This document shows, piece after piece, positions 2,699 through 59,056 of a stretch of DNA of 64,000 bases (within the stretch, counting starts at the first letter, position 1; every line of letters starts with the position of its first letter). The position numbers and the translations under genes are program-made. The notes beneath the pieces are model-generated. The model made no database searches. It was not told the DNA's origin and was given only the letters and a program-made list of their open reading frames with translations. This DNA comes from Phycisphaeraceae bacterium (GTDB taxonomy: Bacteria > Planctomycetota > Phycisphaerae > Phycisphaerales > Phycisphaeraceae): positions 2,912,001-2,976,000 of the forward strand of contig OY771506.1 of NCBI GenBank assembly GCA_963674705.1, in the 5' to 3' direction.

Positions 2699-3526
2699 TT
2701 GATCGGCGATTTTGGACCATTACTCGATCACTTACCGGCATGGCTGATGGTCATGTTCCGGCTGACGGGTATCTTCCTGCTCGCGCCGATCTTCGGCAGC
2801 GCGACGATCCCGCGCACCGTCAAGGTCATGCTTGTCTTTACCTTGACGTGTTGCATCTACCCGATGCTGCTGAATCCGGGTAATTCGTCCGCGGTGATGC
2901 TTGCGCCGGTGATCGATCACGATCTGAACCTGTGGCTATTGCTTCCTTACATCGCGATGGAATTGATGATCGGCCTGGTGATCGGCTACTGCGCGAGCCT
3001 GCCGATGATCGGGATGCAGCTTGGGGGGGATGTGATTGATAAGCAGATCGGCATCGGCTTTGCCGACATCGTGAACCCGGAAACGGGCGAGCAGTCGGGC
3101 GTGATGGCGAACTCGCTGTTCATGATGGGGCTTGCGATCTTCGCGATCCTCGGCGGGCACCGGATCATGCTGCGTATCCTCGTCGGCAGCTTTGACATGA
3201 TTCCGATCGGCGGATTCGCGGACTTCGCGAAGGTCGAAGGTCTGGTCAACCTGGTTTTGGGTTTGCTGACCGTGATCTTCCAGATGGGGTTCCGGATCGC
3301 GGCGCCGTTGTTGTGTCTGATCTTCCTTCAGACGGTTGCATTGGGTTTCATCGCGCGAACGGTTCCGCAACTGAACATCATGAGCGTGGGTTTCACGATC
3401 CGTATTTTGAACGGCACGACGATGATGATCGCGTTCATTGCGATCGCCGCGTGGCTGTATGCGGATCAGATGATGGGGATCCTGACGGAGATCGCGAAGT
3501 TTTTCGATTTGGAGTTGTTGTTTTAA
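2699..3526 (+). CDS. fliR: Flagellar export gate protein FliR
   Basis: Multi-TM, ARTVPQLNIMSVGF; TTG start after AGGAGG. Confidence 0.95.
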   Translation: MIGDFGPLLDHLPAWLMVMFRLTGIFLLAPIFGSATIPRTVKVMLVFTLTCCIYPMLLNPGNSSAVMLAPVIDHDLNLWLLLPYIAMELMIGLVIGYCASLPMIGMQLGGDVIDKQIGIGFADIVNPETGEQSGVMANSLFMMGLAIFAILGGHRIMLRILVGSFDMIPIGGFADFAKVEGLVNLVLGLLTVIFQMGFRIAAPLLCLIFLQTVALGFIARTVPQLNIMSVGFTIRILNGTTMMIAFIAIAAWLYADQMMGILTEIAKFFDLELLF

Positions 3527-3529
3527 GCC

Positions 3530-4600
3530 ATGGCTGAGAATCAATTTGAAAAAACCGAAGCCCCAACGCCACGGCGCAAGCAGGAAGCGCGTGAGGATGG
3601 CAACGTGGCGCGCAGCACAGACCTGACTGCGGCGATCATGTTGCTGGCGGCCATCGTGGCGTTGAACGTGCTGGGCACACGGATGATTCAGACACTGGGC
3701 CATGCGACACGTGTGCTGTTGAGTTCAGAGCACCACCCGAACCCGACGCGCATCGATGGGCTTGGTGAGAGCGCTTACTACAGCGTGTACATGTTTGCGA
3801 TAGCGCTCGGTCCGATCGTGTTGGCGATCATGGCGGTGGGTCTGCTGGCATCATTGGGGCAGGTCGGTTTCTTATTAACGCTTAAGCCGCTTCAGCCTAA
3901 CTTCGGCAAGCTGTCGCCGATCAAGGGCGTGTCGAACCTGTTCAGCGCCCGTGCGGGGATGCGGCTGGTGATGAGCGTTTTGAAAGTGATCCTGATCGCG
4001 ACGGTGGCGATCTGGTTCGTGATGGGTGACATGCCACGCATCCTGCATATCGCGGAGATGGAGGCGCTGCAGGCGTTCGCCGCGGCGGGCACGATCGTTT
4101 ACGTGCTTGCGCTGAAGCTTGCTCTGCTTCTGCTGGTGATGGCGATCCTGGATTATGCGTTCCAGCGCTATCAGCACGAGCAGGATCTGAAGATGAGCAA
4201 GCAGGATGTGAAGGAAGAGATGAAGCGGATGGAAGGCGATCCGATGGTCAAGCAGCGACGTACACGTGTTGCACGTCAGCTCGCGATGCAGCGGATCGCT
4301 CAGGCGGTGCCGAAGGCAGACGTCGTGGTGACGAACCCGACGCATTACGCGATCGCGCTGCAATACGATTCGCAGACGATGCGGGCGCCGAAGGTGATCG
4401 CCAAAGGCGCAGACTTCATGGCGATGCGTATCCGCCAGATCGCGATAGCCAACGGCATCCCGCTGGTCGAGCGCAAGCCGCTGGCGCAGGCGTTGTACAA
4501 GCACGTAGAGATCGGCGATGAGGTGCCGCCGGAACATTACACGGCGGTGGCGGAGATTCTTGCTTACGTTTACAGGTTGAGTGGGAGGAAGTCGGCGTAG
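3530..4600 (+). CDS. flhB: Flagellar export switch protein FlhB
   Basis: EKTEAPTPRR, EGDP, NPTH autocleavage motif. Confidence 0.98.
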   Translation: MAENQFEKTEAPTPRRKQEAREDGNVARSTDLTAAIMLLAAIVALNVLGTRMIQTLGHATRVLLSSEHHPNPTRIDGLGESAYYSVYMFAIALGPIVLAIMAVGLLASLGQVGFLLTLKPLQPNFGKLSPIKGVSNLFSARAGMRLVMSVLKVILIATVAIWFVMGDMPRILHIAEMEALQAFAAAGTIVYVLALKLALLLLVMAILDYAFQRYQHEQDLKMSKQDVKEEMKRMEGDPMVKQRRTRVARQLAMQRIAQAVPKADVVVTNPTHYAIALQYDSQTMRAPKVIAKGADFMAMRIRQIAIANGIPLVERKPLAQALYKHVEIGDEVPPEHYTAVAEILAYVYRLSGRKSA

Positions 4601-4604
4601 CGAC

Positions 4605-4636
4605 AAGCCATTAGCCATTAGCCGTTAGCCATTAGC
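4605..4636. repeat. Left arm: (GCCATTA)n heptamer tandem, inverted relative to 5001-5032
   Basis: AAGCCATTAGCCATTAGCCGTTAGCCATTAGC; 30/32 match to the reverse complement of 5001-5032. Confidence 0.95.
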
Positions 4637-4647
4637 TAGAAAGACGT

Positions 4648-5019
4648 ATGGGACAGACTTCACGAGATTATGCGAAGCTTCAGGTGTGGCAGAAAGCCCA
4701 CGTGCTGACGCTGCGCATCTACGAAGCAACTCGACGTTTTCCTGCTGATGAACGGTTTGGTTTGACCAGTCAGATGCGGCGATCGGCGGCCTCTGTGCCG
4801 GCGAACATTGCTGAAGGCTGTGGGCGTGGCGGTGAAAGTGAACTGGCCCGGTATCTGCAGATTGCTCAGGGCTCCGGATCGGAGCTGAGTTACCACCTGC
4901 TGCTAGCTCGCGATTTGGGCTTTATGAAAGAGGAGATCGCAAACGAACTCATTAGGTTGTCGCGTGAGGTTACACGCATGCTCCAGTCCTACCGTTCCAA
5001 GCTAAGGGCTAATGGCTAA
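4648..5019 (+). CDS. Four-helix-bundle protein (23S rRNA IVS protein-like, TIGR02436-type)
   Basis: L.VWQKA, FP.DERFGLTSQMRRSA.SVPANIAEG.GR, IAQGS.SE. Confidence 0.93.
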   Translation: MGQTSRDYAKLQVWQKAHVLTLRIYEATRRFPADERFGLTSQMRRSAASVPANIAEGCGRGGESELARYLQIAQGSGSELSYHLLLARDLGFMKEEIANELIRLSREVTRMLQSYRSKLRANG

Positions 5020-5032
5020 TGGCTAATGGCTT
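5001..5032. repeat. Right arm: (GCTAATG)n heptamer tandem containing the cargo stop and the flhA start
   Basis: GCTAAGG GCTAATG GCTAATG GCTAATG GCTT; TAA 5017-5019 overlaps ATG 5019. Confidence 0.95.
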
Positions 5033-7226
5033 AAACACCACCCCCGCATGGCTTCTACGGCTGTACAAGTACCGGCCGTTGTTGGTGCCTATTGCTTTTA
5101 TCGGGATGTTGGCGATGGTGGTGGTGCCGATGCCGCCGATGTTGATGGACTTGATGATCTCCATGAACATCGCTCTGGCGGCGATCATTCTGCTGACGAC
5201 GATCTTTGTCGAAAGCCCCTTGGACTTTTCCGTGTTCCCGTCGCTTTTGTTGGGTACGACTCTGTTCCGGCTTGTGTTGAATATCGCAACGACGAAGATG
5301 ATCCTATCGGCCGACCCGACAAGCCCGCAGGCGGCGACGGCGGCGGCGGGGAAGGTGATCCAGGCGTTTGCCGAGTTCGTGACGGGTTCGTCGATTGTGG
5401 TCGGCGTGGTCATGTTCTCGATCCTGATCATCATTCAGTTCGTCGTGATCACCAAAGGTGCGACACGTATTTCGGAAGTGGCGGCGCGTTTCACGTTGGA
5501 CGGGATGCCGGGCAAGCAGATGGCGATCGACGCTGATCTGAACGCCGGGCTCATTGATGAGCAGACGGCCCGCATGCGTCGTGAAGCGATCGCACAGGAA
5601 GCCGATTTTTATGGAGCGATGGACGGTGCTGCGAAGTTCGTTCGCGGCGACGCGATCGCGGGCATCATCATTACGATCGTGAACATCCTCGGCGGGTTTG
5701 CGATCGGTGTGTTTATGAACGGCTGGACGATCGCGGAATCGGTCGATGTGTTTACCAAGCTGACGGTGGGTGATGGTCTTGTGTCGCAGTTACCGGCGTT
5801 TGTGATTTCGGTGGCGGCGGGTTTGATCGTGACGCGATCCAGCAGCCGACAGGACCTGGGGACGGAACTGACGGGGCAGTTGACCAGCCGAAAAGCGGCG
5901 CTGGGGATCACATCAGGATTTCTGATCTTGCTGGGGCTATTGACGCCCTTGCCGACGGCGCCGATGTTGTTGCTGGGTCTAGCGTTAGGTGGATTTGTGT
6001 TTATGACGCACCGGTCGGCGGCGCAGGTGGCGCAGGTCGAAGCGCAGAAGGCTGCCAAGCCTGCGCGTGCGGATGAGTCGCCGGTCGAAGAGGTGATGAA
6101 GGTCGACATGCTCGAGCTTGAAGTGGGGTATGGCTTGGTACGTCTGGTGGATCAATCGCAGGGCGGAGATCTGTTGAACCGGATCACGATGATCCGCAGG
6201 CAGTTGGCGACGGAGATGGGGCTGGTGATGCCGCCGGTGCGTATCCGCGACAACATGCAGCTTCAGCCTAATGATTACCAGATCAAGATCCGCGGTAACG
6301 TGATGGCGCGCGGTCAGGTGCATCCCGGCAAGTACCTGGCGATGGACTCGGGGCTTGCCAGTGAACCGTTGAAGGGCGTTAAGACGGTCGAGCCTGCGTT
6401 CGGGTTGGAAGCGGTGTGGATCAGCCCGGGCCAGAAGGAACGTGCCGAGGCGCTCAACTACACGGTCGTCGGCGCGACGGATGTGTTGGCGACGCATATC
6501 ACCGAGGTTGTGCGTAACCATGCACGCGAACTGTTGACGCGCGAAGAGACAAACAACCTTATCATCCAGTTGAAGGAACGTGCACCGAAGCTGTGCGAAG
6601 AGGTGCTGCAGCCGACGGGCGACAAGCCACCGCTGGTCAAGCCGGGCGAATTACAGCGTGTCTTGCAGAACCTGTTGTCCGAGCGTGTGCCTGTGCGTGA
6701 TCTTGAAGTGATAGTGGAAACGTTAGGCGATTGGGCGACGCGGACAAGAGATTTAGATGTTTTGACAGAATATGTACGAAATTCACTTAGTAGGACGATC
6801 TGTAATCTGTACACTGTGTCAGAACCATCGGGTGATGGCACGAATCCAGGTATGACGTCGAACAAGTTATATTGTGTAAGCCTGGACCCGGCGATAGAGG
6901 ATCAAATCAACGGCTATGTCGAAAGGTCGAACGAGGGGACAAGCATGACAATGCCGCCGGCGGTTGCGAACAAGATAACTGGGGCGATCCTTGAAGAGTT
7001 GAATCGTCTGACTCAGATGGGTCATCACCCGGTGCTGTTGGCGTCGCCGCAAGTCCGTGGGCCAGTCAGGCAATTGATCGAACCGCACCTGCCGACGGCG
7101 GCGGTATTGGGATACAACGAAGTCAGTAAGGGGGTCGAGGTCGAGGCGCTGGGTATGGTGCAGATGCCGCAACCACAGCAGGCCGGCGGCCGCAGGGTTG
7201 AAGAATTACAAGGGGCAGTTAATTGA
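5019..7226 (+). CDS. flhA: Flagellar export protein FlhA
   Basis: RISEVAARFTLDGMPGKQMAIDADL, FYGAMDGAAKFVRGDAIAG. Confidence 0.98.
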   Translation: MANGLNTTPAWLLRLYKYRPLLVPIAFIGMLAMVVVPMPPMLMDLMISMNIALAAIILLTTIFVESPLDFSVFPSLLLGTTLFRLVLNIATTKMILSADPTSPQAATAAAGKVIQAFAEFVTGSSIVVGVVMFSILIIIQFVVITKGATRISEVAARFTLDGMPGKQMAIDADLNAGLIDEQTARMRREAIAQEADFYGAMDGAAKFVRGDAIAGIIITIVNILGGFAIGVFMNGWTIAESVDVFTKLTVGDGLVSQLPAFVISVAAGLIVTRSSSRQDLGTELTGQLTSRKAALGITSGFLILLGLLTPLPTAPMLLLGLALGGFVFMTHRSAAQVAQVEAQKAAKPARADESPVEEVMKVDMLELEVGYGLVRLVDQSQGGDLLNRITMIRRQLATEMGLVMPPVRIRDNMQLQPNDYQIKIRGNVMARGQVHPGKYLAMDSGLASEPLKGVKTVEPAFGLEAVWISPGQKERAEALNYTVVGATDVLATHITEVVRNHARELLTREETNNLIIQLKERAPKLCEEVLQPTGDKPPLVKPGELQRVLQNLLSERVPVRDLEVIVETLGDWATRTRDLDVLTEYVRNSLSRTICNLYTVSEPSGDGTNPGMTSNKLYCVSLDPAIEDQINGYVERSNEGTSMTMPPAVANKITGAILEELNRLTQMGHHPVLLASPQVRGPVRQLIEPHLPTAAVLGYNEVSKGVEVEALGMVQMPQPQQAGGRRVEELQGAVN

Positions 7227-8548
7227 ATCTGAAGACATTTTCCGCGGAATCGATGGCACAGGCGTTGGCGCTGGTCAAGCGTGACCTGGGTTCGGACGCA
7301 GTGGTGCTTCACACACGCAGCTATAAGCGAGGCGGTGTGCTGGGGATAGGTGCGAGAACGATCGTGGAGGTGACGGCCGGGAAGGGCTCGGAGGTAGCGC
7401 GTAGTCGCCGGCGTGCGGCGGGTACAACACGTGCCACGGCATTACCGAAGCGCAGGCCTGCGATCGCGCAGGCCGATCCGAAACAGCACGCAGCGGCGGG
7501 GGACCTGATCCGCCGGACCTATGCCGCAGCGAAAGCGGAGATCGAACAGTCCCGTCAACAGGAGTTGCAGGAAGCGGCGACCGCGACGTTGGAGCCACCG
7601 GTCATGGTGACTTCGCCGGCGATGCCTGATCCGTATCAGTTGGCTAAAGAGATGAGCGAGGTGAAGCATCTTGTTTCGTGCATGATGCACCAGCAGCAAT
7701 GCAAGGGCGAGCCGACGAGTCTGCCCAAGGGTTTGAGCCAGCAGTATGCGACGCTGCTGCAACAGGAAGTGGCGTGCGAACTGGCGGATGAGATTGTGAG
7801 CAAGGTTCGCCGAGAATTAAGCGACGAGCAGTTGGCTGATGAAACAGCATGCCGGGACGCGGTCCGCAAGCATCTGGCTGGGTATTTGCCTACCGAAGCG
7901 GGGGTCGAGGTTGTGGACGTGGCCAAAACCGAGGACGGCCGGCCGCGGACGATTGCGCTGGTCGGGCCGACGGGTGTGGGTAAGACGACGACGATCGCCA
8001 AGCTCGCAGCGACATTCAAGATCAAGCAGAAGAAAAATGTGGCGCTGATCACGCTGGACACGTACCGTATTGCGGCGGTGGATCAGTTGAAGACGTATGC
8101 GGGGATCATCGGCGTGCCTCTGCACGTTGTGCTCAAGCCGGAGGAGGTCGAATCGACGCTCGCCAAGTGCTCGCGCTACGATGTTGTGCTGATCGATACA
8201 GCCGGTCGCAGTCAACGTGACGATGAGCGGCTGACACAATTGTCACAGTTTTTGGCTGAGGCGAGGCCGCACGAGACGCACCTGGTGCTGTCCTCGACGT
8301 GCTCGCAGCAAGTGTTGATGGAGACGGTGGATCGGTTCAGTTGCGTGAAGACGGACCGGATCATCTTTACCAAACTGGATGAAGCCGTTACCTTTGGGGT
8401 GTTGTTGAATGTTCTGGGCAAGGCGGACAAGCGCCTCAGCTACGTGACGACGGGGCAGGAAGTGCCACATCAGATCGAGCGGGGGTGCCCGAACCGGTTG
8501 GCCGACCTGGTTTTGGGCAGTGTCTCGGGAGGGAGAAGTGATCGCTGA
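7223..8548 (+). CDS. flhF: SRP-type GTPase FlhF
   Basis: GPTGVGKTTT, DTYRIAAVDQL, DTAGRS, TKLDE, TTGQEVP. Confidence 0.96.
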   Translation: MNLKTFSAESMAQALALVKRDLGSDAVVLHTRSYKRGGVLGIGARTIVEVTAGKGSEVARSRRRAAGTTRATALPKRRPAIAQADPKQHAAAGDLIRRTYAAAKAEIEQSRQQELQEAATATLEPPVMVTSPAMPDPYQLAKEMSEVKHLVSCMMHQQQCKGEPTSLPKGLSQQYATLLQQEVACELADEIVSKVRRELSDEQLADETACRDAVRKHLAGYLPTEAGVEVVDVAKTEDGRPRTIALVGPTGVGKTTTIAKLAATFKIKQKKNVALITLDTYRIAAVDQLKTYAGIIGVPLHVVLKPEEVESTLAKCSRYDVVLIDTAGRSQRDDERLTQLSQFLAEARPHETHLVLSSTCSQQVLMETVDRFSCVKTDRIIFTKLDEAVTFGVLLNVLGKADKRLSYVTTGQEVPHQIERGCPNRLADLVLGSVSGGRSDR

Positions 8549-10771: not shown

Positions 10772-10882
10772 TAGGGTGTCGGGTGTAGGGTGTTGGGTAT
10801 AGGGTAAGAACAAAGCTTTGAACATGGATAATGCACGAATGGTCCGATTGTTTTCGGCATTCGTGTATTTTCATTTGTGTAT
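10772..10882. repeat. G-rich heptamer tandem plus 12-bp-arm hairpin
   Basis: TAGGGTG TCGGGTG TAGGGTG TTGGGTA TAGGGTA (10772-10806); AATGCACGAATG/CATTCGTGTATT (10830-10869). Confidence 0.8.
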
Positions 10883-10941
10883 TTACGGCTTGAGACTGTC
10901 AACTTGACTTAAGCGTACGATTGCCCGACCCTGTCGGGCTT

Positions 10942-13660: not shown

Positions 13661-13692
13661 AAATCATAAATCCCAAATCCCAAATCATAAAT
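13661..13692. repeat. Heptamer tandem (AAATCAT/AAATCCC) overlapping the stop of the 13685 gene
   Basis: AAATCAT AAATCCC AAATCCC AAATCAT AAAT. Confidence 0.8.
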
Positions 13693-16926: not shown

Positions 16927-17160
16927 TGCCACGAAAAGGCACAGATATGGGTCTGGGGTCTAGGGTCTAGTCAGAAACTTCCGGGGCAACGCCGGTCCTG
17001 AGCGAAGCGAAGGGGCGGGTATCTTCATGTTCAATGTTCGATGTGCGATGTTCAATCTGGAAGCGGCAACCAGTAATCCGTGCTAATGGCTAACGGCTTA
17101 AACAACTCATACATTTCGAAAGGAAACTTTGGGATAGCCACGAAAAGGCACAGAAGGGGC
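16927..17160. repeat. Composite intergenic repeat mosaic
   Basis: GCCACGAAAAGGCACAGA at both ends, GGGTCTR heptamers, 36-nt hairpin repeat 16987-17022, ATGTTCR heptamers, GCTAAYG heptamers. Confidence 0.85.
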
Positions 17161-24159: not shown

Positions 24160-24405
24160 CGGGGAAAGCAGAAAGCAGGAAACGCAGAAAATTAAGACAA
24201 CTGCTTTGTACGATTTTCCGATACCCGATACCCGATACCCGATACCCGAGAAGATACCCGGCCCTTCGCTTCGCTCAGAACCGGCGTTGGGGGGAAGAAA
24301 GCCATTAGCCTATAGCGATTAGCCATTAGCAATACAATTTCCACACCCCACACCCGATAACCATCCCCCTGAAACTCACACACGTAACCTGATACCCTAT
24401 TACCC
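24160..24405. repeat. Composite intergenic repeat mosaic
   Basis: GAAAGCAG units, (ATACCCG)x4, hairpin repeat 24254-24289, GCCATTA heptamers, C-rich heptamers up to the lnt ATG. Confidence 0.88.
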
Positions 24406-31372: not shown

Positions 31373-31501
31373 GGGCTGGGGTGTAGCGATGCAATCGCTA
31401 ATCTCTGATCGTTAATCGCTAATGCCTCCCAACGCCGGTCCTGAGCGAAGCGAAGGGGCAGGTGTCTTTATGTTCAATGTTCGATGTGGAATGTTCAATC
31501 T
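31373..31501. repeat. Composite intergenic repeat mosaic
   Basis: G-rich run, TAATCGY heptamers, hairpin repeat 31430-31465, ATGTTCR heptamers. Confidence 0.85.
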
Positions 31502-37794: not shown

Positions 37795-38028
37795 GGGAGG
37801 GGAAAGCAGAAAAACAGGAAAGCAGGAAAGCAGAAAATGAAGACAATAGGGGGATATATAAGCCTTTAAAGATCAGTGACTAGCCGGATTTTACGATTGG
37901 ACATGGCACATCGAAGATTGAACATGAAAATACCCGGCCCTTCGCTGCGCTCAGAACCGGCGTTGGGGGAAAGCCATTAGCCTTTAGCGATTAGCCATTA
38001 GCAATACGATCCCCAGACCCTGGACCCA
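37795..38028. repeat. Composite intergenic repeat mosaic
   Basis: GAAAGCAG units, inverted ATGTTCR heptamers, hairpin repeat 37930-37965, GCCATTA heptamers, GACCC heptamers. Confidence 0.88.
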
Positions 38029-43829: not shown

Positions 43830-44024
43830 GGTCGGGTATCGTACTTCGGGTATCGGGTGTCGGTTTTATTACGCCGGTCCTGAGCGAAGCGAAGGGCCGG
43901 GTGGTTTTAATCACTAATCTGTAATTTCTAATCTCGAATGTTCGATCTTCAATGTTCCATCTGCCGCTTGCTGTCCGTGCTAAAAGCTAACGGCTAAAGG
44001 CTAATGGCTAAAGGCTAACGGCTT
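43830..44024. repeat. Composite intergenic repeat mosaic
   Basis: TCGGGTA heptamers, hairpin repeat 43871-43902, TAATCTN and ATGTTCN heptamers, (GCTAANG)x6 abutting the grpE stop. Confidence 0.88.
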
Positions 44025-45869: not shown

Positions 45870-45895
45870 ACCACAGAGGCACAGAGGCACAGAGA
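45870..45895. repeat. 8-mer periodic arm (CACAGAGG), inverted relative to 46272-46297
   Basis: ACCACAGAGGCACAGAGGCACAGAGA; 24/26 match to the partner arm. Confidence 0.92.
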
Positions 45896-45908
45896 AGGCA
45901 GGAAGAAA

Positions 45909-46301
45909 CTAAAGAACAAAGCGCTTGATGCCTTCCTTTAAAACAGGGACATTGAAGTTGATGAGGAGTCCTACGGGGTATTTGCCAAGTTTCATGTAGG
46001 TCAGCAACTGAGCTTCGTGAACCGGTAATATCTTTTCGATGGTCTTCAATTCGATGACCAGACGATCTTCTACCAGCACATCAATCCGTAGCCCCTCATC
46101 TAACTTCAATCCCTTATAACTTACAGGTAAATGCACTTGCCGTGCATACTTCAGGCCGGCTTGATCCAGTTCATAACAAAGGCAAGACTCATAGATCGAT
46201 TCCAGCAGGCCGGGGCCGAGTTGGCGATGCACTTCAATGGCCAGGCCGATGACCTACTGGGTTAATGGATCTCTCTGTGTCTCTGTACCTCTGTGGTTCA
46301 A
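45909..46301 (-). pseudogene. GxxExxY protein (PD-(D/E)xK-like) with in-frame TAG at codon 16
   Basis: TTG start gives [67 protein letters not shown] at 46254-46256. Confidence 0.85.
46272..46297. repeat. Partner arm encoding the GxxExxY N-terminus
   Basis: Minus strand ACCACAGAGGTACAGAGACACAGAGA encodes NHRGTETQR. Confidence 0.92.
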
Positions 46302-58800: not shown

Positions 58801-58899
58801 CTGACCGCCAGCGTCGACGAGATCGACAATGCCCAGGCCATCGGCATCGTCCTGATCCCCGAAGGCTTCGGTGGCGGGATCAACCCCCTGATGCAGTAA
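55801..58899 (+). CDS. lptD: LPS-assembly protein LptD-like
   Basis: OstA-like N-terminal part, TPFFYWPY, SDETFLEEFF, IRHIVEP, beta-barrel C-half; start uncertain. Confidence 0.7.
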   Translation: MDQRTDRVLGDYAPRVRKTHRYLQALCACICVLLLGGMFMQSTVHAADGDVSTAISNPIADPIVHGEAVFFARKVSAWKQGDEQWLLLEGDAGFSIGVYGFRADNAVVRVVTDPQPGRTIRHLSVYLDNAKHLRGTGPVSAEAKRLLVTASTTGKLQVQNDLFVELDQQPRSELITDALARMQRYEQALARVTIEPPTEPLYDPQMFGPRYAAKYTPSEDRPVERKPVEVHPVDTVATGTAVANEASNLPQPVATRAPEPDKGTVLPTQGTVLLNADRVVYDPGEDESSIMLIGNVRVFYDDFKNDRQVSLRSERVVVFVDKKQDGAAIAPASVQADTVRGIYLEDNVIVADRDFTVRAPRVYYDVRENKAILLDAVIYSYDALRQLPLYMRAETIRQTSATSFNAQNVQLTTSEFAEPHFAIGAARLTLDKEDVESANDTYKFTASDTTLRVRDTPFFYWPYLEGKPTEVPIKRVKTGYDSDTGFELETVWDVFALAGREAPDGVRLLGKADWRGDHGPAVGADLEYGLENMFGHAETYLLLNDNGTDTVGGRRDIEQDSETRGYYLWQHRHYLPNGSELSLESAYVSDETFLEEFFRDEAYQSKPYETSLYWKKQSEDQALTFLTRYDLTDFTPQLAPLQTPGYTVDKAPEVSYFRTGTSLWDDKLTWFSENRAGFVRIRPGEDTPFDRGFSNRASMTLFGIPNTTAFDDAVFATGVPDEWVFRVDSRQEVNMPIEAGDFTIVPYAVGRVTAYDEDFSAYAGEADQYRLWGSLGTRVSTQLSRTFDTQNGMLDVDGIRHIVEPSVDVFVSGSSLDSEDIPVYDYDVESLQEGEGLRLGLTNTFQTHRGSGAQRRAVDWIVWRTDLVFNNSDADVDDEIARFFDYRPEYSTGGDHLYTELLWMVTDTFGITGELTHSMEHDRIVQWRVGGSLQHTPRFTSFVRYDEIDLLDSRLLSFGFTYVLTVKYQMGFRQRLDFERDESQSVDVWLERRVPKWRIRLTASVDEIDNAQAIGIVLIPEGFGGGINPLMQ

Positions 58900-59056
58900 A
58901 AAAGCAGGAAAAATTGAAAAGCAGGAAAGCTGGAAAGCAGAAAAGCAGCAGATTAAGAACTTTTGGTTCTATGGCCGGCCCAATGGGCAGCCAAACCCGG
59001 GATCATCCATGTTTTCTGCTTTTCTGCTTTCCTGTTTTTCTGCTTTCCTCTCCCCC
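58899..59056. repeat. Gene-less inverted arm pair of 8-mer periodic type
   Basis: (GAAAGCAG)n at about 58900-58950 facing (CTGCTTTY)n at about 59012-59048. Confidence 0.85.

Follow-up and report, generated by a model that had tools for sequence, protein, structure and literature searches.

A gene for a four-helix-bundle (4HB) protein lies between flhB and flhA of a Phycisphaeraceae bacterium (contig OY771506.1), enclosed by two inverted arms of tandem heptamers, and we interpret this locus as a mobile cassette that moves among gene junctions and whose protein is predicted to bind its own arms as a pentamer, a reading to which we assign a probability of about 0.6. The window, as the term is used here, is the whole 64,000-nt stretch of DNA that was analysed, and G000 denotes the genome under study. 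The locus is real and not a one-off: its anatomy, the swap of cassettes, the match between arm motif and protein clade, the arrays of the arm unit in carrier genomes and the fact that the closest homologs occupy six flagellar junctions are all established.

The locus and its protein

The features of the locus and the related features elsewhere in the window are collected in Table 1. A preliminary description of this DNA had the left arm begin 4 nt past the flhB stop and the right arm overlie the flhA start, and these coordinates are exact; the 30/32 arm match with one G-U pair in the sense RNA was likewise borne out, with the G-U pair at 4624 and an A-G mismatch at 4631. That description did not contain the TAATG overlap, the FlhA codons in the right arm, the further arrays of the same unit or the GxxExxY cassette in the window. 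The arms can be extended to 38 nt at an 89% match, and the right arm consists of the final codons of the 4HB gene together with FlhA codons 1-5; in genome G928 the arm likewise lies in the start of the downstream gene. FlhA of the sister genome G004 aligns with the present FlhA from residue 1, supporting the ATG, and the overlap of the 4HB stop with the flhA start suggests translational coupling between the two genes. The arm stem was present in both the MFE and the centroid structures (z = -5.0; 0/100 shuffles equally stable), and GC3 was 0.58 in the 4HB gene versus 0.75-0.77 in flhA and flhB. No sigma-70 promoter was found in 4400-5200, and an Rfam scan of 3500-7300 gave nothing above the gathering score, the single weak match being at chance level.

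Table 1. Features of the flhB-flhA locus and related features of the window, in window positions
Feature	Position	Strand	Basis or remark
flhB, upstream host gene	3530..4600	+	TIGR00328, 388 bits, above cut-off
CGAC, 4-nt spacer between flhB stop and left arm		+	Sequence
Left arm, 4.4 x 7-mer, TYAG-core family	4605..4636	+	Unit family as beside the closest homologs
4HB gene, TIGR02436/PF05635, 123 aa	4648..5019	+	Profile search, structure model
Right arm, reverse complement of left arm	5001..5032	+	Layout also in G928
TAATG, 4HB stop overlapping flhA start	5017..5021	+	Sequence
flhA, downstream host gene	5019..7226, ATG at 5019	+	TIGR01398, 826 bits
Gene-less left-type array, 7-mer of 4605-4636 arm	24300..24330	+	Stacked with arms of other types
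Gene-less left-type array, 7-mer of 4605-4636 arm	37972..38002	+	
Gene-less left-type array, 7-mer of 4605-4636 arm	43979..44023	-	
GxxExxY gene with one internal TAG, inverted 8-mer arms	45870..46299	-	

In profile searches the 4HB protein matched only 4HB/Avd-like families, and the cassette encodes no transposase. Its scores against TIGR02436 and PF05635 (124 versus a cut-off of 24 bits and 130 versus 34 bits) uphold the earlier assignment to the proteins of rRNA intervening sequences (IVSs), and its scores against the Avd profiles lie under their cut-offs (23.6 versus 80 bits and 22 versus 40 bits). Structural kinship with the DGR protein Avd, which had also been claimed, was seen at the level of the fold: the model has four helices (pLDDT 94.5) and matches XCC0516 (2GSC, TM 0.90), BT_0352 and Avd (4DWL, TM 0.77, E 0.027), with the Avd structures 4DWL and 8UBB sharing the fold at TM 0.75-0.77. 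From homology to 2GSC and 2RLD, which have 5 chains each, the protein is predicted to be a pentamer. The accessible text of a preprint on Avd (bioRxiv 10.1101/2023.10.23.563531) describes a pentamer in which each of the five subunits touches an RNA stem-loop and flipped-out RNA bases sit in crevices between the subunits. The 4HB gene is under purifying selection, with 62% amino acid identity and a 4-fold identity of 0.22 at 37 sites.

Cassette exchange at the flhB-flhA junction

We surveyed the flhB loci of 29 relatives, 27 of which reached flhA. None of these 27 junctions held a 4HB gene; three (G004, G009 and G012) held a GxxExxY cassette with 10-mer arms, four had inverted arrays of other units and no gene, and five congeners had short junctions of 6-23 nt, one of which retains what resembles part of an arm where flhA starts, the last two classes being scored by eye. 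The flhB of G004 is 98.6% identical to that of G000, and since G004 carries the GxxExxY cassette and G000 the 4HB cassette, at least one replacement has taken place after the two split. The same 4HB clade was found at flhB-flhA in G928 and G803, which favours an old residence of the clade at this junction. Between G000 and G928 the 4HB identity (62%) resembles that of flhB (64%), and residence can therefore be very long and hops rare. The comparison of empty and filled sites that had been proposed for this junction thus yielded empty, filled and swapped ones, and these lend support to an alternative already raised in the preliminary description, a cassette without a transposase of its own.

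The GxxExxY cassettes (TIGR04256, PD-(D/E)XK_3) resemble the 4HB cassette in size, layout and the junctions they occupy, and replace it in the three relatives, but their cargo belongs to a nuclease family and their arms are built of 8- or 10-mers; they are barely described in the literature. The genes flanking the GxxExxY cassette in the window look like groEL and dnaJ. Another gene cluster (genome 2217403-2220794) contains three cassettes within 3.4 kb, two of the GxxExxY type and one of the 4HB type.

Where the junctions of G004 and G000 were compared (1.3 of the 5.8 Mb of G004), the DNA after the stop codon was non-homologous at 29/67 array junctions versus 84/493 others, some of the 29 being mere copy-number changes. 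The other 4HB sites of G004 and G009 were empty in G000 or held unrelated hairpins, and the sites occupied by arrays change rapidly from one sister genome to the other. One 4HB gene of G004 (L168) is orthologous to the subfamily-II gene at genome position 5040074 of G000, with arm units that differ and share a RAT core, and both arms have evidently been exchanged while the gene stayed. A target-site duplication was sought by eye and none was seen; there is no clean pre-insertion site because whole intergenic regions are replaced. Co-conversion of flanks gave no specific homing signature, the last 15 nt of the gene being 13% divergent at array swaps versus 14% in array-free replaced controls. 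An in-frame insertion of ~1 kb in a dnaB-like gene (genome 2284783-2285826), which looks like an intein, is absent from G004. The first 900 nt of flhA (window ~5050-5950) are nearly identical between G000 and G004 (99.3% versus 95.5% in flhB; 4-fold identity 0.97 versus 0.87), which points to a recent recombination tract beginning at the cassette.

Arm motifs and gene-less arrays

The 80 best matches to the protein in the genome collection (50-63% identity), 75 of them with full flanks, span Chloroflexota, Acidobacteriota, Nitrospirota, Thermodesulfobacteriota, Planctomycetota, one archaeal bin and others. An inverted match score of >=14 was reached by the own arm pair in 51/75 homologs, versus 100/600 mismatched pairs and 12/75 direct matches. 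With a unit caller that was seeded with TYAG, the arm unit of the closest homologs reads T-Y-A-G-C-N-R, with a mode of 4-5 units per side and far shorter opposite-strand chains. Arms were consistent at 96 of 132 loci, and there the similarity of the units rose with protein identity from ~3.4 to 5.9 of 7 (Mantel rho 0.54; maximum of 0.13 in 300 permutations). In a quick tree, subfamily II had a RAT core in 22/24 and TYAG in 0/24, and subfamily I had TYAG in 50/72, 55 of these 72 rows having been ranked by similarity to the query and kin not being independent. Plain co-inheritance could produce such tracking of motif and clade. The core is conserved across phyla despite saturated synonymous sites, which points to a reader travelling with the cassette, and the encoded 4HB protein, presumably binding the motif, is the obvious candidate.

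Four-unit TYAGC arrays occurred genome-wide in 10/10 tested carriers, of 12 in the order, at 8-262 overlapping matches, and in 1/30 relatives outside the genus. All 10 other genomes of the genus have the arrays and none has the 4HB clade, with array numbers peaking in G000 and G004; arrays therefore persist, and may spread, without the gene. Two smaller searches, one at phylum level (n = 5) and one for paralogs under strict criteria (4 other genomes out of 400), contributed little.

In G000 itself, TRF returned 439 period-7 and 103 period-8 rows, mostly of 4-5 copies, and arrays of three TYAGC units numbered 85 versus 0.07 expected under an i.i.d. model. By eye, inverted arms surround 5/6 of the TIGR02436 paralogs, every pair with another unit, and run from the upstream stop to the downstream start. 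Stop codons in all three frames were considered as the reason for period 7 and dropped, because several units (e.g. the TCGGGTA family) contain no stop codon. Spacing was <150 nt in 79/105 inverted periodic pairs, and a second peak at 350-400 nt comprised 7 pairs enclosing 3 4HB genes, 3 GxxExxY genes and 1 unannotated cargo. With crude gene calls of our own, 482/580 arrays were assigned to a family, of which 192 abut a gene with the polarity of the cassette, 9 with the opposite polarity and 281 lie off gene edges. Array neighbours at most 30 nt apart were converging in 117 cases (67 between different families), parallel in 47 and diverging in none, and we read these orientations as elements nesting in older ones and then losing parts. 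Among the TYAG arrays with an inward neighbour, 59/62 face an arm of another family, with which pairing is impossible.

Within the window, arm types are stacked around a REP-like hairpin at 24164-24355, 37801-38002 and 43860-44023; further 7- or 8-mer arrays lie at 10772-10884, 13661-13692, 16949-17056 and 31393-31499, and an inverted 8-mer pair without a gene at 58893-59049. Gene-less heptamer arrays also occur inside a coding sequence that we take to be priA-like (L047:1393-1983, compared with genome 3245979-3246527), with a 21-nt length difference between the sister genomes and units that differ at the second site. In L058 and L059 the gene downstream of the cassette, presumably kdsC-like, has no clear start, and the right arm spells its first residues.

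The REP-like hairpin has 62 copies in the genome, often directly before a TYAG array, and the genome has 14 Y1_Tnp genes; together, hairpin and arrays may be a composite MITE or REPIN that one of these Y1 transposases mobilises. The earlier statement that the window lacks a transposase holds for this class, the one that was checked, since none of the 14 matches falls inside it. These genes and hairpins would suit a view of the cargo as a mere passenger, in which slippage, template switching or a transposase of the Y1/RAYT type creates and disseminates the arrays, and 4HB and GxxExxY genes are caught between them and swapped by homologous recombination in conserved genes on either side; congeners with arrays and no gene, and the near-identical flhA tract beside the cassette, fit it too. 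It leaves unexplained, however, that from phylum to phylum the arm motif goes with the protein clade, that arrays are present in carriers yet mostly missing in other genera, and that 4-5 units are the mode, and the enrichment of low-divergence tracts beside arrays was not significant (p 0.08 and 0.19). We consider this the least probable of the explanations discussed here.

Transcripts, flagellar operons and related elements

The preliminary description had put forward an IVS-like cassette in an mRNA, whose stem could be processed or could gate flhA. In such a reading RNase III would remove the ~430-nt loop, or the stem would hide the flhA start until translation of the cargo melts it, tuning FlhA versus FlhB. 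A strong stem is indeed predicted over the flhA ATG, an RNase III gene is present in the genome, cassettes are co-oriented with their host operons, the arms of one cassette resemble each other more than those of different cassettes do (4.93 versus 4.15 of 7), and a like-built IVS of Coxiella is cut by RNase III in vitro according to the accessible text of PMC4990558. The covariation checks lent it no support, however: arm mismatches comprised 34 G-U versus 36 A-C in 51 loci with no G-U excess at four thresholds, unbroken duplexes were <15 bp in most of these loci, and register-specific pairing (109 versus 87 permuted) was nearly equalled with the order reversed (102). Most arrays have no pairing partner, cutting here would take away the flhA start region, and sister genomes do without the 4HB cassette, with other cassettes or none at the junction.

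Whole 4HB cassettes with 8-mer arms were also found in one loop of the error-prone polymerase gene dnaE2 of five relatives (L060, L062, L257, L260 and L266), the first two cassettes having been followed by three more among the 18 of 30 further dnaE2 loci that could be parsed. All five, which may share ancestry, are in frame and stop-free, four with an intact 4HB ORF overprinted in another frame, whereas a same-strand frame open across the cassette was found in 0/136 cases outside dnaE2 (138 loci scanned). An open frame is needed for read-through and would be needless under excision or bypass, which speaks against excision. By analogy with the Coxiella IVS, RNase III could nonetheless act on the 32-bp stem incidentally, but processing or gating as the reason for the architecture seems unlikely to us.

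Searching 400 genomes of the order at E <= 1e-33, we found a close homolog in 12, one copy each. Nine of the 12 occupy junctions between flagellar genes (two each at flhB-flhA, motA-motB and flgK-flgL, one each at fliE-fliF, fliG-fliH and flgE-flbD), two lie between T2SS-F genes that we label tad-like and one in a fatty-acid operon, and Pfam confirmed one or more neighbours at every locus; among the closest homologs within the family the flagellar share is 9/11. Upstream neighbours of other 4HB loci were flagellar in 1/41, with 10 lacking a match and some sites repeated, and the upstream neighbour was co-oriented in 86/88 assignable loci. G000 and G004 have arm footprints at fliE-fliF, fliG-fliH, flgE-flbD and motA-motB, and none was found at flgK-flgL of G000. 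In the tree the flagellar rows form an unresolved grade with no supported clade, and beyond this bacterial family the 4HB clade occurs in many unrelated operons. Local hopping, co-expression and domestication are all compatible with the flagellar pattern.

Domestication would make the protein a flagellar-operon regulator that binds ~100 TYAG arrays by the stops and starts of mRNAs and exerts post-transcriptional control in the motile stage. Its single copy in 12/12 genomes, at a flagellar site in nine, the purifying selection on the gene and the way arrays hug gene edges would agree with such a role, which MacGregor suggested for TAACTGA repeats in the accessible part of PMC4679880. Against it stand the presence of the gene in just 12/400 genomes of the order, its absence from 10/10 congeners that keep the arrays, the rapid turnover of array sites between sister genomes and the unrelated operons occupied outside this family, and we rate a domesticated regulator as improbable as the processed mRNA.

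Under the mobile-cassette reading, a five-part 4HB ring would bind four to five arm repeats and so help units bounded by such arms, whether or not they contain the gene, to be placed at further junctions. The arms would be arrays of binding sites in which every subunit takes approximately one heptamer, recognised as single-stranded RNA or DNA in the way the Avd pentamer takes up flipped-out bases between its subunits. Because the 4HB protein is entirely helical and has no match among enzyme families, cutting and joining would have to be supplied in trans, by host recombination or by a GxxExxY or Y1 enzyme. Newcomers would land within older elements and at gene edges, and deletion would leave solo or mixed arms. 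Co-orientation, transcription from the operon promoter and the passing of ribosomes to flhA via TAATG may explain why the host tolerates the insert, and we propose that with such coupling the mRNA is read through rather than excised. Expression together with flagellar operons, and hops to loci that are nearby or active simultaneously, would keep the lineage in these operons. Against the mobile-cassette reading weigh the arrays of the 10 congeners that lack the gene, the absence of a visible target-site duplication and of a specific homing signature, the differing arm units of one orthologous 4HB gene, the chance that motif and clade are simply co-inherited, and the unresolved grade formed by the flagellar rows.

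Among known systems the nearest is the S23p IVS of Coxiella burnetii, which shares with the present cassette the PF05635/TIGR02436 family, a size of ~430 nt, a terminal stem of ~30 bp and tandem heptamers immediately upstream of the ORF (PMC4990558, from the text accessible to us); these heptamer repeats at the stem strengthen the tie to rRNA IVSs drawn in the preliminary description. In contrast to it, the insert here lies between flhB and flhA in a protein-coding operon and not in an rRNA helix, its ORF is intact and presumably coupled to the next gene, and the cassette is found at many junctions along with hundreds of gene-less arms. Two 23S motifs, used to find the genome's own 23S gene and a possible IVS in it, gave no match. 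Unlike a DGR, the locus has no adjacent reverse transcriptase; the single RT of the genome is ~960 kb away (the sole RVT_1 gene, 1952708-1953940, ~410 aa, after two large ORFs of no assigned function). The 4HB locus is neither a DGR nor an IS, and it lies outside the rRNA location that defines a 23S IVS. RAYT/REPIN and MITE systems offer an analogy, as they combine an autonomous gene with many gene-less inverted-repeat derivatives in intergenic DNA. They differ in that the 4HB protein has no HUH or DDE domain, the arms are tandem heptamers and not palindromic REPs, and no target duplication was seen.

We take PMC4692102 to be the study of Rehm et al. Its accessible text describes GGGAATC repeats in Xanthomonas, in converging heptamer pairs, and GGGGAYT in Nostoc, and that of MacGregor (PMC4679880) describes TAACTGA heptamer arrays before starts in Beggiatoaceae together with a repeat-binding protein proposed as a possible mobile element. 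As far as these texts go, the repeats resemble those described here in being intergenic 7-mer arrays of few copies, polar to starts or stops and often converging, and the reverse complement of TAACTGA contains the TYAG core of this clade, but here a candidate partner protein lies between the arrays. Neither 'helix bundle' nor 'S23' appears in the texts of PMC4679880 and PMC4692102. The accessible parts of PMC10053308, PMC5524665, PMC8700078 and bioRxiv 10.1101/2021.01.26.428298 merely mention the families, and a literature search of mostly open-access papers found none linking TIGR02436/PF05635 genes to heptamer arms outside rRNA.

A wider reading, which we advance tentatively and at less than even odds, is that 4HB proteins are the partners of bacterial heptamer repeats, each clade being a pentameric reader of a 7-base motif peculiar to it and driving transposase-free, junction-nesting elements. 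The rRNA IVS would then be one landing site, the DGR Avd a recruited member, and the present lineage one trapped in the flagellar regulon because the element would move only at times and places at which its host operon is expressed. The question joins three matters: what the 23S-IVS protein family does, where the intergenic heptamer arrays of many phyla come from, and from what DGR Avd descends. For annotators, arms may make up the first codons of essential genes, and entire cassettes may be overprinted within dnaE2. If the proposal is true, specialists in mobile DNA would be surprised by a seemingly programmable ring with a tandem motif as its target, by insertion at gene edges without a transposase, and by a lineage of elements that keeps to flagellar operons.
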